The translations under genes were made by a program, and so were the position numbers. The notes under the pieces were generated by a model. It was not told the DNA's origin. It saw only the letters and a list, made by a program, of their open reading frames with translations, and ran no database searches. Below are positions 1 through 5,178 of a DNA stretch of 64,000 nucleotides, piece by piece (position 1 is the first letter of the stretch; every line of letters starts with the position of its first letter). Source of the DNA: an uncultured Candidatus Rokubacteria bacterium (GTDB lineage Bacteria > Methylomirabilota > Methylomirabilia > Rokubacteriales > CSP1-6); assembly GCA_963789955.1 (NCBI GenBank), contig CAWBMV010000034.1, positions 640,001-704,000 of the forward strand, written 5' to 3'.

Positions 1-362
1 GCGAGCTCGGAGACGGTCGCGCCCTCGGGCTGCAGGACGAGGTGCTGCTTGACCCGCCCGGACTCCAGCTGGCTCAGGACGTCCAAGGTGGATGCGCCCC
101 GGTCGAGCTCGTACTCACCCGCCTTCAAACGCCGGGTGGTGCCCCGGAGCCCGGCCAGGACGACGAAGCCCGCGCGGCTTCGGATCCCACCGGCCTGCTG
201 CAGACGGTTAGCGATCTCCAGGACGCCGTCGTGGGCTGGAATCTCCACGAGCACCGGACCGGCCTGGAGCGCATCGGTGGGCGTCGCGACTTCGTAGCCC
301 AGAAGGGCGACGACGGCGACCCCAACGAGCATGAGGAGGGCGATGGCGGCACGCAACCCCAT
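1..362 (-). CDS. mltG: Endolytic transglycosylase MltG (YceG family), N-terminal part; runs off the window
   Basis: Manual translation from ATG at 362: MGLRAAIALLMLVGVAVVALLGYEV...IANRLQQAGGIRS...LKAGEYELDRGASTLDVLSQLESGRV...PEGATV; N-terminal TM helix plus YceG-type LKAGEY and PEG motifs. Confidence 0.85.
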   Translation of the reverse strand, partial: MGLRAAIALLMLVGVAVVALLGYEVATPTDALQAGPVLVEIPAHDGVLEIANRLQQAGGIRSRAGFVVLAGLRGTTRRLKAGEYELDRGASTLDVLSQLESGRVKQHLVLQPEGATVSEL

Positions 363-388
363 GATTTCCCAGTGTAACATCGGGGCTC

Positions 389-397
389 TGGTATACT
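389..397 (+). promoter_or_regulatory. Extended -10 promoter (TGgTATACT) upstream of rpoA
   Basis: TG at 389-390 and TATACT at 392-397 in the mltG/rpoA divergent spacer. Confidence 0.5.
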
Positions 398-454
398 GTG
401 ATGCCTTGGTGGCCGAATTACCCCGATCACACTGGCTCGCTTCTAGGGGGTCCC

Positions 455-1447
455 ATGCTTGAGTTGCAACTGCCCACCCGTCACGATTGGACTGTCCAGG
501 ACAAGACTTACGGCAAGCTGTCGATCGAGCCTTTCGAGGCCGGCTTCGCCCTGACCGTCGGTATCGCGTATCGCCGGGCGCTTCTTTCGGCGATCCACGG
601 CGCCGCGCCGACCTGGGTCAAGATCGAAAACGTCCTGCACGAGTTCTCGCATCTGCCGGGTGTGATGGAAGACACGCTCGACATCATGATGAATCTCCGC
701 AAGGTCGTGTTCACCTTGCACGTGAACCGGCCCAAGATCCTCCGGCTCCGCGCTCAGGGCAGCGCGGTCGCCAAGGCCAGCGACTTCGAGACCGACGCGG
801 ACATCGAGGTCCTCACGCCCGACGTGGTCCTGGCGACCCTCGACAAGGACGGGGTCTTCGAGATGGAGGTCTGCGTCGAGCGCGGCCGCGGCTACGTGTC
901 GGCCGAGAAGCGCGAGCCCGAGGCCCTGCCGATCAACGCGATCCTCCTGGACGCCGACTTCTCGCCGGTCAAGCGGGTGAACTTCCACGTCGAGCCCGTG
1001 ACCGAGGGCCGCGAGCGGCTGGTGCTCGAGGTGTGGACCGACGGCAGCGTCAGTCCGGCGACCGCGGTCGGCGAGGCGTCGCGGATTCTCGAGGACCACT
1101 TCGATCTGCTCATGGACTTCCCGGAGGTCTCGCCGCAGGAAGAGGCCGCCGAGCGCGACGAGGCGCGGCCGCGCACCGAGCTGAACGAGAACCTGTTCCG
1201 CAACGTCGACGAGCTGGAGCTGTCGGTCCGCGCGTCGAACTGCCTCAAGACCGCGAACATCCGGACCATCGCCGACCTCGTGCAGAAGACGGAAGCCGAG
1301 CTCCTGAAGACCAAGAACTTCGGCAAGAAGTCGCTGAACGAGATCAAGACGATCCTGGGCGAGATGAGCCTGTCACTCGGCATGCGCCTGGATCCGGAGG
1401 AGCTGGAGCGCCTGCGCTCCCAGTACGAACGCGCCTACGAAGCCTAG
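455..1447 (+). CDS. rpoA: DNA-directed RNA polymerase subunit alpha (stand-alone, divergent copy)
   Basis: [33 protein letters not shown], alpha-[16 protein letters not shown]...[17 protein letters not shown] upstream of ATG 455. Confidence 0.95.
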
Positions 1448-1657: not shown

Positions 1658-2893
1658 CTAGCGGGAGAGGCGGGTTTTGATGCGGTCGACGGCTTCTTCG
1701 GTTGAGGCGCGGGCGCCGAAGGCGGTGAGGCGGAAGTAGCCCTCGCCGCTCGGGCCGAAGCCGGCGCCGGGGGTGCCGACGACGTGGGCCTCGTTCAGGA
1801 GCTTGTCGAAGAAGTCCCAGGACGATAGACCGCCCGGGGTCTTGACCCAGATGTACGGGGCGTTGCGCGCACCGTAGACCGTGAGTCCCGCCGACTCGAG
1901 TCCTTCCCGAATGATCCGCGCGTTCTCCATGTAGTAGTCGACGAGCGCGGTGACCTGCTTCTTGCCCTCGGCCGTGTAGGTCGCGGCGGCGGCGCGCTGG
2001 ATGACGTAGGCCACCCCGTTGAACTTGGTGGACTGGCGGCGGACCCAGAGCGAGTTGATGCTCACCGTCTCGCCCGAGGCCGAGCGGCCCTGCAGCTCCT
2101 TCGGTACGACGGTGTAGGCGCAGCGCGTGCCCGTGAAGCCCGCGGTCTTCGAGAAGGAGCGGAACTCGATCGCGACCTCGCGCGCGCCCTCGATCTCGTA
2201 GATCGAGTGCGGGATCGCCGGGTCGCGGATGTAGGCCTCGTACGCCGCGTCGTAGAGGATGACGGCGCTCCGCTCGCGCGCGAAGTCGACCCAGGTCTTC
2301 AGCGCCGCGCGCGTCAGCACCGCGCCGGTCGGATTGTTCGGGTAGCAGAGGTAGATCAGATCGACCGGCCGGTCCGGGATGCGCGGCTGGAAATTGTTCT
2401 CGGCCGTGCACGGCAGGTACACGATCCGATCGTAGCGACCGCTCGCGTCCGCGTTCCCGGCGCGTCCGCCCATCACGGTGACGTCGAGGTACGCGGGGTA
2501 TACCGGGTCGCTGAGCGCCACGACACAGTCCGGCCCGAAGATCTCCTGGATGTTGCCCGTGTCGCTCTTGGCGCCGTCGCTCACGACGATCTCGTCGGCG
2601 GTGAGCTTGATGCCGCGCTCGCCGTAGTCGTGACGGATGATCTCGTTGACGAGGAAGTCCCAGCCGGTCTCGGGCGGATAGCCGCGGAACGTTTCCGGCC
2701 GCGCCATCTCGTCGACGGCCTCGTGCATCGCGCGGATCACCGCGTCGGGCAGCGGCCGCGTCACGTCACCGATCCCCAGGCGGATGAGCTTCGCGTCGGG
2801 GTGCGCCGCCTGATATTCACGCGTGCGCCGGCCGGTCTCGCTGAAGAGATAGCTGGCGCGCAGCTTCAAGTAGTGGTCGTTTATCCGGGTCAT
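1658..2893 (-). CDS. dapL: LL-diaminopimelate aminotransferase
   Basis: [66 protein letters not shown]. Confidence 0.95.
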
Positions 2894-2904
2894 GACGCAC
2901 GATT

Positions 2905-5178
2905 CTAGCAGATCGGTTCGGGGTCGAGGCAGACGCGGTCGATCCGTCCCGAAGCCCACCGTGTGACGGTCAAGGTGGCGCCGTCGGTCTCGAAGATGAG
3001 CGCGCCGTCACGATCGGTCCGATAGATCTGAGCGCCGGCCTCGGAGAGTCGCGCCACGACGCCGGCATCGGGATGTCCGTACGCGTTACGCGCTCCGACC
3101 GAGATCGCCGCGAGCCTCGGGCCGACCGTGCGCAGGAACTCGGAGCTCGTCGAAGAGCGCGAGCCGTGATGGGCGACCTTGAGGACCATCGAATCCAGGC
3201 GCGCCCCCGCGGCGGTCAACTCGCGCTCACGCGGGATGCCGATATCGGAGGTGAGCAGGAACGAGGCGAGCCCCATGTCGATTCGCAGCACCAGCGCGGC
3301 TTCGTTGCGCCGCCAACCGTTCACCGCGGTGGAGGGGAGCGCCGCGAGCTCAGCGCCACCGAAACGCCGCGTCGTCGGAGGATTCGCCGCGGTCCACTCC
3401 TCGTCGATCGCGAAGAGGCGCCGGACCGCGCCCGCGCCGCCGGCGTGATCGCTATCATCGTGGGTGACGGCGAGGCCGGCCAGTCGCAGAATGCCGCGAT
3501 TCCAGAGGAACGGAGCGACCACACGCTCGCCGGCGTCCAGACGCATCGGGCCGCCTGATCCCGCGTCGATGAGCAGGGCACGGCCGTCGGGCGTCTCGAC
3601 GACGATCGCGTCGCCCTGGCCCACGTCGAGGATGGTGAGCCGCAGCAGACCGTCGGCCGGCCGCACGAGCGGCCACGCCGCGACGCCGACCGCCAGAGCG
3701 AGAAGCGCGGCTCCGAGAAGGAGCCATGCACGCGCGCTGCTCACCTCGCGATCTCGGCCGACGCGCCAGACGAGCAGTGATGCGAGTCCGCCGACGTAGC
3801 ACGTCACGGCGACCCAGCCCGGAGCCGGGAGATAGAGGACCGCACAAGGCACCTTGGCGGCGACCGCGACGAGCCCGCGCAACGCCAGCAGGACGGGCCA
3901 GACGGCGTCGAACGCCACCGCCGCGACGCTGTCGCTGAGAAACGACAGGCCGACGGCCACGAGCCCGCCGACCGTGGCGACCCCGGCGAGGGGAACGACG
4001 CCGAGATTCGCGATCAGGCCGATCGTCGAAAGCTGATTGAAGTGGGTCAAGGAGATCGGTAGCACCGCCAGCTGGGCGGCCGCGCTCACGGCGAGCGCGC
4101 CGAGGACCAGTCCGCGCGGCAACGGGGCGATGACGATGCCGAGCGTGGCGGCGAACGAGAGCTGAAAGCCCGGGTCGAAGAGGTCGCTCGGCCGAGCTGC
4201 GAGGATCACGAGCGCTGCCAGCGCCAGGCTGTTGGTCACGGACGCGTCGCGATCCAGGAGCGACGCCACCAGCACGAGCACGGCCATGACGACGGCGCGG
4301 AGCACGGAAGGCTCCGGCCCGACGACCAGCGCGAACCCGATCACCACGATGATGGCCGTGACGGCCGAAGCTCGGTGGGGCAGGCGCAGAAGCCGACAGA
4401 GCGCCCAGACCGACGCCGCCAGGATTCCCACGTTGAAGCCGGATACGGCCAGGACGTGGTAGACGCCGGCCCGGCGGAAGGCGTCGTCGACGTCGCGCGG
4501 CAGCTCGGTTCGGTCGCCGAGCAGGAGCCCCGCAAGCAGCGCGGCCGACGTGGGCGGCAGGGCGCGCCCAATGGCCGCGACCGACTCGTGCTTGACCCGC
4601 ACCGGCCACGGCGGCCCCGGATCGTCTAGCGCGGTCACCGAATCGGCGCGCGTCGTGGCCAGGACGAAGATGCCGTCGCGCGCGAGGTGCGCCGCGTAGT
4701 CGTAGGTCCCGGGATTTCGAAAGCCGGCGGCGCGACTCAGCCGCAAAGGGGCGGCCACGCGCTGCCCTTCGGTCAGCGGCGGCAAGACGCCGTAGGCCGT
4801 CACCTGGATGAGACCCACCCGAGGCTCGTCGTCCACGCGTACGGCGTCCAGCAGAAGGCGAGCGCGATCGGGAGCCCACCGCCGTGGCTCTGCAACCAAC
4901 CGCCCCTCGACGCGAAGCGTTTGCGGGAGAGCCAGGCGGCCGACGTGATCGGGCGGAAGCGGCGCGTCACTGCCTCGGAGCGCGCCCACAGCGACGACGC
5001 CGAGCAGCAGCGCCGCCGCGGCCGCGAGCGTTCGAGCGACCGCGAGCGACGCGAGACACGCAACGACGGCGACCAGCCACGCCACCAGGAAGAGCTCGAG
5101 CGCCGCGAGGGAGGCCACGGCAATGCCCCCGGCAAAGGCGACGGCGACGGGAGCAATCGGTGTCCGCTTGAGATTCAC
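2905..5178 (-). CDS. comEC: DNA internalization competence protein ComEC/Rec2 (OB + Competence + MBL domains)
   Basis: [51 protein letters not shown] start overlaps comEA stop (GTGA). Confidence 0.93.

Follow-up and report, generated by a model that had tools for sequence, protein, structure and literature searches.

A second gene for the α subunit of RNA polymerase outside the ribosomal operon of Rokubacteriales, and a candidate oriented α heterodimer

The gene for the α subunit of bacterial RNA polymerase, rpoA, usually lies in the order rpsM-rpsK-rpsD-rpoA-rplQ, although this location is not a strict requirement. The DNA analyzed here (the window: 64,000 nucleotides, C34:640001-704000, from contig C34 of the metagenome-assembled genome (MAG) G000) comes from a member of Rokubacteriales, an order of soil bacteria that is abundant and uncultured, and carries an rpoA gene between mltG and dapL with no ribosomal protein gene adjoining it. 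Is this the only α gene of the genome, moved out of its operon, or is it a second α subunit specialized for one of the two α positions of the enzyme, as a preliminary description of the window had proposed? We favor the second answer and propose, with a probability of about 0.6, that the product of the window gene and the α encoded in the ribosomal operon form an oriented heterodimer, in which the former would sit on β and supply the working C-terminal domain, and the latter would sit on β′. In the following, A2 denotes the window gene rpoA2 and its product, A1 the operon rpoA, and A3 a third copy on contig C16.

A2 is a complete α subunit. It contains all three domains of RpoA known to Pfam (PF01000, 97.9 bits; PF01193, 57.8 bits; PF03118, 90.6 bits), matches the rpoA equivalog TIGR02027 with 322.9 bits (cut-off, 227.8), and has RNA polymerase α chains as its closest solved structures (best E, 8e-84). 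When the genome (6.77 Mb in 38 contigs, 87.2% complete, 5.14% contaminated) was searched with the A2 protein, three loci were found, namely A2, A1, and A3, next to one rpoB and one rpoC. A1 is located at C34:329211-330156, ∼310 kb from A2 on the same contig of ∼1.27 Mb, in the context rpsK-rpsD-rpoA-rplQ. It is 36-46% identical to A2 and matches TIGR02027 with 286.9 bits. Automatic annotation labels A1 and A2 alike as "RNA polymerase subunit alpha."

The window gene is thus not the only rpoA. Of 41 genomes of the order (a count that includes G000), both types were detected in 35 and A2 in 40. With A1 as the query, at least two matches were obtained in 118, one in 24, and none in 3 of the 145 Rokubacteriales genomes searched, these being matches and not copy numbers. 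A single rpoA, 49-55% identical to A2, is the rule in the sister orders of this class, with exceptions in a few genomes. The estimated contamination of 5.14% would be compatible with a foreign contig in the bin, but A1 and A2 share one contig here and in six further genomes (G011, G036, G038, G040, G063, and G083), and the arrangement recurs throughout the order. Simple relocation of a sole rpoA and an artefact of binning are thereby refuted, and we give them practically no weight. No rpoA match at all was obtained from two MAGs with completeness ratings of 97 and 91% (G110 and G106), so that missing copies in these bins are uninformative.

Reciprocal conservation and decay of the two copies

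Distinct sequences, 39 of A1 and 98 of the A2 type (A2 and A3), were aligned, with residues numbered according to E. coli RpoA. In this alignment, two segments of the N-terminal domain behave in opposite ways. Leu-65, His-66, Glu-67, Phe-68, and Ser-69 are each present in 98/98 A2, whereas His-66 is found in 0/39 A1 and the segment is scrambled in A1; the column entropy over residues 62-72 is 0.48 for A2 and 2.13 for A1. Conversely, Arg-191, Leu-192, Gly-193, Asp-197, and Tyr-198 are present in 39/39 A1 and in 0/98 A2, and Thr-196 is also absent from all 98. The number of residues between Glu-188 and Leu-201 is 12 in every A1 and ranges from 7 to 15 in A2, with a column entropy over 189-200 of 1.84 for A2 and 0.31 for A1.

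The 65-69 segment and the 191-200 loop are both the bacterial norm. Among 119 diverse representative α sequences, His-66 occurs in 109, Glu-67 in 111, Phe or Tyr at 68 in 110, Arg-191 in 99, and Asp-197 in 87, with Arg-45 in 117. Both motifs are also kept in the seven rpoA genes that were fetched from sister orders and in the single rpoA of Nitrospira.

In the window gene itself, residues 195-198 of the loop are missing, and Arg-191 is replaced by threonine. Solved α subunits (HMMER alignments) and the α subunits of E. coli, Nitrospira, and Methylomirabilales have 4 more residues in this loop. The shortening by about 4 residues that the preliminary description had reported thus holds for this gene; across the order, the loop varies in length and is not uniformly 4 residues shorter. 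Because a remodeled loop is found in 98/98 distinct A2-type sequences, it is no read error, as had been argued. The features described as retained (the equivalent of Arg-45, HEFS, VRASNCL, and NFGKKS, the last two in the C-terminal domain) are all present. A further motif, the usual GFG.TLGNALRR, is indeed altered at residues 30-41 of A2, but the wording G[FY]ALTVG also occurs in the operon copy and is therefore a trait of the lineage and not special to A2, and the change of Asn-41 to isoleucine is seen in only 43/98 A2.

The two segments gain meaning from the interfaces of E. coli α, for which we rely on one paper (Mukhamedyarov 2011; PMC3294249). In hydroxyl-radical footprinting, β protects residues 30-55 and 65-75 of α, and β′ protects residues 175-185 and 195-210 (PMC3294249). 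The substitution R45A abolishes binding of β, and two-residue insertions at 180 and 200 as well as changes at Lys-86 and Val-173 block binding of β′ while leaving the α2β subassembly unaffected (PMC3294249). Placed on this map, A2 has retained the β segment and released the β′ loop, and A1 has done the opposite. A compensatory hotspot in Mycobacterium tuberculosis rpoA (A180-T187) is said to touch β′ (PMC11137121); it is not part of the evidence used here.

Over residues 1-235, the entropy is 0.76 for A2 versus 1.03 for A1, and the A2 branches in the tree are shorter. Of the two copies, A2 is the more strongly constrained, and A1 in the operon is more derived.

The C-terminal domains differ in the same sense. 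In A2, Arg-265, Asn-268, Cys-269, Glu-261, Lys-291, Gly-296, Lys-297, Lys-298, and Ser-299 are each present in 98/98 sequences, and the entropy over 250-320 is 0.19; Arg-265, Asn-268, Cys-269, Gly-296, Lys-298, Ser-299, and Glu-261 we take to be contacts to DNA and sigma. The C-terminal domain of A1 keeps Arg-265, Gly-296, Lys-298, and Ser-299, whereas Cys-269 is changed to alanine, Glu-261 and Lys-291 are lost, and Lys-297 is changed. Work with oriented α subunits in E. coli reportedly places the β-associated C-terminal domain at the promoter-proximal UP subsite beside sigma, a placement that would fit the retention of Glu-261 in A2 only. A2 also ends in a conserved tail with the consensus ELERLR[SA]Q[YR]ER[AS][YF]E[AT], in which glutamate at position -15 is found in 98/98 and arginine at -12 in 94/98 sequences; by sequence comparison, a tail of this type is missing from A1 and from the single-copy relatives.

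The domain is absent altogether from 16/39 A1. At 15 loci of family f4 and one locus of family f3, a short A1 open frame stands between rpsD and rplQ, and in f4 the match to rplQ begins exactly at the end of the A1 frame. One translated f4 copy (L122) has 249 amino acids. In 16/16 f4 genomes and in the one f3 genome searched, the match is restricted to approximately residues 2-250 of full-length A1, and a free-standing C-terminal domain was not found in those genomes with A2 as the query (E up to 1e-5). A side observation concerns the f4 genome G033, in which a 2.6-kb contig (L159, G033:C358:1-2500) carries an odd full-length, operon-type α that is 38% identical to A1, next to an L17 gene whose product is 55% identical; this contig is perhaps a contaminant.

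Is A1 then still a working α subunit? An A2 homodimer might be the sole working α, with A1 as a decaying relic or with a role outside the polymerase, and the faster evolution of A1, its loss of HEFS, the loss of its C-terminal domain in one family, and its lower TIGR02027 score compared with A2 would all agree with that. We nevertheless consider this very improbable. Open frames of A1 are kept throughout the order, Arg-44, Arg-45, Arg-191, Gly-193, Asp-197, Tyr-198, and the loop length are invariant in 39/39 A1, and the start of the rplQ match at the frame end in f4 likewise argues against a relic. A1 of G000 has a single frameshift; compared with G013 and G011, it contains one additional base (L146:4608 = G000:C34:∼329608) that breaks it into two frames. 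Three DNA runs, each from a different study, and one RNA-library run have a single contig each across this site, and none of these contigs has the base. The other differences of these near-identical contigs number 3-4 over 174-237 bases in the DNA runs and 24 over 264 bases in the RNA run. We therefore take the extra base for an error of the assembly or a change private to this genome rather than the mark of a dead gene, and we dropped the assignment of A1 of G000 as a pseudogene.

How two copies could come to decay in opposite ways may be understood from the enzyme's asymmetry. An α that forms homodimers needs both surfaces, because either copy may land beside β or β′. With two genes present, each copy would be free to lose the surface that it does not use, which would amount to subfunctionalization of an asymmetric homodimer. 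A2 would then be the β-side α and A1 the β′-side α, and since each copy appears to have relaxed exactly its unused surface, only the A2/A1 pair would offer a β-binding and a β′-binding surface together. The working C-terminal domain would be carried by A2, leaving the polymerase of family f4 with a single α C-terminal domain, and the separate, predicted promoter of A2 next to mltG would uncouple the supply of A2 from the ribosomal protein operon. The reciprocal pattern at the β and β′ segments supports the earlier proposal of a paralogue specialized for one α position, and from it we infer the putative heterodimer.

Origin of the pair and weighing of alternatives

In a maximum-likelihood tree of 49 α sequences, with which a quick tree of 98 rows agrees, A1 forms one clade (support, 100/98), and A2, with A3 nested inside, forms another (100/99). 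Within the resolution of the sampled families, each clade mirrors the family structure, except that the position of f5 differs between them. A1, A2, the α of G025, and the operon α P0025 are united in one clade at 98/94, and the loci of P0025 have an ordinary S4-rpoA-L17 operon. The stems of A1 and A2 are both long, so that long-branch attraction is possible. The simplest reading of the tree would be a duplication within the lineage followed by faster change in both copies; transfer of one copy from a close relative is a possible alternative to duplication in the lineage.

G025, the only genome of family f2 that was searched (73% complete), has a single rpoA, intermediate in type, in the order S4-rpoA-L17 (L177:997-1962, on G025:C235). 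Its product combines HEFS with the loop RLGQVIDYEKL and a canonical, A2-like C-terminal domain containing KTKNFGKKS, and it is 50-51% identical to A1 and to A2. The gene of G025 may reflect a stage preceding the division of roles. The proposed series would run from both motifs in one gene (G025) through split roles (f1) to loss of a domain (f4). The broader proposal therefore comprises an obligate oriented α heterodimer across Rokubacteriales that arose independently of that in Francisella, a relocated gene that provides the β-side α and with it the sole C-terminal domain that is fully functional, an f4 enzyme with a single α C-terminal domain, and the successive stages just named. For this whole set taken together, we judge the odds to be about even.

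Several points weigh against the oriented heterodimer or against its proposed history. Five of the 41 genomes (G001, G004, G009, G012, and G020) yielded only A2 and no A1, among them G001, which is rated 99% complete (10% contaminated). The single operon α of G025 is sister to A1 at 100/100, so that more than one order of events would fit; constraining the tree to unite A1, A2, and A3 without G025 lowers the log-likelihood by 22.7 units, and the approximately unbiased test does not reject it (p-AU 0.162). The map of β and β′ segments is E. coli footprinting as summarized second-hand in one paper (PMC3294249). Arg-44 and Arg-45, the best-known β determinant, are present not only in 98/98 A2 but also in 39/39 A1, so that A1 retains a β determinant. 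In A2, Lys-86 and Lys-200 are merely exchanged for arginine (97/98) and Val-180 is kept, and A2 may still be able to bind β′. Finally, positions 35, 38, 39, 46, 50, and 227 of the dimer interface show no change that would forbid homodimers.

Some of these points would also suit the opposite orientation, with A1 on β and A2 on β′. Besides the paired arginines, A1 has a well-conserved 30-55 segment (entropy, 0.32), and the conservative exchanges K86R and K200R, together with the retained Val-180, would leave A2 equipped for β′. This orientation is improbable, however, since the β-protected 65-75 segment is lost from A1 and the loop in the β′-protected 195-210 segment from A2, which is the reverse of what it would need.

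Less improbable, though still unlikely, is the existence of two polymerase populations, either with A1 homodimers and A2 homodimers or with A2 as a regulatory or alternative α that conditionally replaces A1, with different responses to promoters and activators. In favor of this are an interface compatible with homodimers, the presence of Arg-45 in both copies, a conserved predicted promoter of A2 outside the ribosomal operon, a conserved C-terminal tail specific to A2, and a further copy, A3, in some genomes of the genus. On the other hand, each copy has relaxed a near-universal segment that footprinting ties to one of the large subunits, so that a homodimer of either copy would be without one of the two surfaces, and an A1 homodimer in f4 would be without any C-terminal domain. 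A2, as the more constrained copy and with its presence in 40/41 genomes, is also a poor fit for an accessory factor. We therefore favor the oriented A2/A1 heterodimer.

The rpoA2 locus and its neighborhood

The features of the locus are compiled in Table 1.

Table 1. Coordinates of features at the rpoA2 locus, given as positions in the window
Feature	Position	Strand	Basis
mltG, 5′ part (endolytic transglycosylase), divergent, upstream	3..380	-	TIGR00247, 234 bits on the full open reading frame
Extended -10-like element TGgTATACT, predicted rpoA2 promoter	389..397	+	Sequence reading and conservation in relatives
Shine-Dalgarno-like AGGGGG	445..450	+	4 nucleotides before ATG; sequence reading
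rpoA2 (A2), full-length second α subunit of RNA polymerase	455..1447	+	330 amino acids plus stop, frame uninterrupted
R40-R41, equivalents of E. coli R44-R45	572..577	+	Alignment with E. coli rpoA
L61-H62-E63-F64-S65, equivalents of E. coli L65-H66-E67-Y68-S69	635..649	+	Inside the β-protected segment 65-75
Remodeled loop P181-R188 (PVTEGRER), equivalent of E. coli 189-200	995..1018	+	4 residues shorter; without R191, G193, T196, D197, Y/L198
α C-terminal domain (PF03118)	1181..1360	+	R265, N268, C269, G296, K298, S299, and E261 (E. coli numbering); 90.6 bits
A2-specific conserved C-terminal tail	1397..1444	+	Conservation across 98 A2
dapL (LL-diaminopimelate aminotransferase), convergent, downstream	1658..2959	-	TIGR03542, 608 bits

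The placement of rpoA2 between mltG and dapL, away from the ribosomal operon, is as first described. In the order, mltG lies upstream in 81/86 A2 loci with enough flanking sequence, and all 5 exceptions are A3 copies, whereas dapL lies downstream in only 30/70.

A promoter of its own had also been claimed for rpoA2. A consensus scan of positions 250-1750 detected no two-hexamer promoter and no terminator, and the conserved -10-like element becomes visible only through comparison of upstream regions. In the relatives, TATA[ACG]T occurs within 160 nucleotides upstream of A2 in 88/94 distinct upstream regions, and the TGn extension in 67/94. The claim thus stands for an extended -10-like element but finds no two-hexamer promoter behind it. 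When the upstream regions of relatives are aligned, a GGGGG/GGAGG run is seen ahead of the start codon. The 5′ leader (403-470) folds no better than shuffled sequences (z = +1.41).

Between the stop codons of rpoA2 and dapL, we observed a nested inverted repeat (1449-1583) with outer arms of 31 nucleotides (81% complementarity) and inner arms of 19 nucleotides, in which no T-run terminator was detected. An Rfam scan of positions 250-1750 gave only two far sub-threshold matches to microRNA models, both on an inverted repeat. In two contigs of one RNA-library run, 209-216 nucleotides between the two genes are swapped for other sequence, so that the spacer differs between strains.

Metatranscriptome contigs from three runs of two studies (X16, X17, and X18) cover positions 422-1334 with 0-7 differences, and a further RNA-library run, X15, covers A1 and also parts of A2. 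Because RNA libraries can contain DNA and contigs carry no expression level, we do not count this coverage of A1 and A2 as expression.

A3 (G000:C16:6684-7673; L002:1498-2487, minus strand) is 79% identical to A2 and has all A2 motifs. Similar copies are found in G006, G010, G011, and G014, i.e. in five genomes in total, and their clade is nested within the A2 of the genus; A3 is a recent offshoot of A2 within this genus. The A3 copies do not lie beside mltG, lack the -10 element, and in 3/5 cases apparently start with TTG. The copy in G000 is among those with an apparent TTG start, and it adjoins an open frame that is transposase/integrase-like, a name given by appearance only.

Two observations concern the assemblies around A1. 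G011, a MAG of few large contigs, has single-base frame breaks in A2 and near the 3′ end of A1; together with the break in G000, this suggests indel errors in these assemblies. In the rpsD-rpoA1 spacer of G000 (L146:4062-4191), the summed depth of contigs over a stretch of ∼50 nucleotides (4128-4180) amounts to thousands in each of the four runs, the flanking sequences are highly diverse, and some contigs omit 124-128 nucleotides of the spacer. This stretch looks like a widespread short repeat or a miniature mobile element that inserted there.

Relation to known α systems

To our knowledge, Francisella is the one case in which an α heterodimer has been shown biochemically. Its α1/α2 heterodimer is reportedly the subject of Charity 2007, and the chains of a solved Francisella RNA polymerase (PDB code 6wmp) are named alpha 1 and alpha 2. 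The heterodimer was established by reconstitution, its orientation was indicated by sequence, and the two subunits have complementary determinants (PMC3294249). The Rokubacteriales pair resembles it in several respects. In both systems, a second, non-identical rpoA gene exists outside the ribosomal operon besides the one inside it, the two genes are conserved in their lineage and sit on long branches, and determinants for β and β′ are lost in a complementary manner.

The two systems also differ. The Rokubacteriales case is of independent origin in another phylum. In Francisella, α2 carries R45Q and α1 carries K200T (PMC3294249), whereas in Rokubacteriales A1 has lost the 65-69 segment and A2 the 191-198 loop, and Arg-45 is kept in both. 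In Francisella, the operon copy would be the one that binds β, whereas in Rokubacteriales we would assign this role to the orphan copy. For f4, the predicted β′-side α is without a C-terminal domain, and nothing comparable is reported for Francisella in the parts of PMC3294249 that were consulted. Assembly has been shown biochemically for Francisella, whereas the Rokubacteriales pair is known from sequence alone.

Duplications of rpoA with one copy outside the operon are also reported from Chloroflexus species and Streptomyces avermitilis (PMC3294249). The Chloroflexus pair shows no drastic substitutions in the dimerization or β/β′ regions, so that its α subunits are possibly still equivalent, and the duplication in S. 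avermitilis is rated as fairly recent (PMC3294249). In contrast to both, the decay in Rokubacteriales is reciprocal and order-wide. Among our 119 representatives, decay on one side was observed in P0114, P0120, P0033, P0091, and P0088 and in P0143, P0149, P0130, and P0049; some of these have HEFS but a degenerate or shortened 191-200 loop, and others lack HEFS but keep the loop. The α of P0120 comes from a Myxococcota MAG. Split α roles may therefore exist in other lineages too.

With the canonical RpoA homodimer of E. coli and Thermus, A2 shares the three-domain architecture, and the residues of its C-terminal domain are those of E. coli. It differs from canonical RpoA by its location outside rpsD-rpoA-rplQ, the remodeled 191-200 loop, its own tail, and the presence of a second, different α in the genome. 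An asymmetric pair is also known from the archaeal and eukaryotic Rpo3/Rpo11 (Rpb3/Rpb11), and the lack of a C-terminal domain in f4 A1 would give the Rokubacteriales pair unequal sizes as well. Unlike Rpo3 and Rpo11, however, both Rokubacteriales α subunits have a complete N-terminal domain of the bacterial type with the insert domain in place, and we saw no sign of helpers like Rpb10 and Rpb12. The resemblance is an analogy and does not reflect shared descent of the split.

A literature search, with most subscription journals outside its coverage, found no report of an rpoA duplication in Rokubacteria among the papers listed. The 2011 paper on Francisella predicted more cases of heteromeric α (PMC3294249), whereas a 2026 review (PMC13374769) presents the α homodimer as the bacterial rule, and the word "Francisella" is missing from its text.

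If the oriented A2/A1 heterodimer exists, Rokubacteriales would provide a second, independent, and order-wide case, and splitting of the α dimer would be a repeatable evolutionary path, one that comes with intermediate stages and with a natural α lacking its C-terminal domain. It would put the footprint-based maps of the β and β′ contacts of α to an evolutionary test and would offer a bacterial counterpart to Rpb3/Rpb11 with its unequal partners. There is also a practical side. rpoA is used as a single-copy marker gene, and given this use, its duplication in the order would affect estimates of completeness and contamination. For the biology of these bacteria, the pair would be a natural system in which to study the role of each α C-terminal domain, with one family apparently living with just one.

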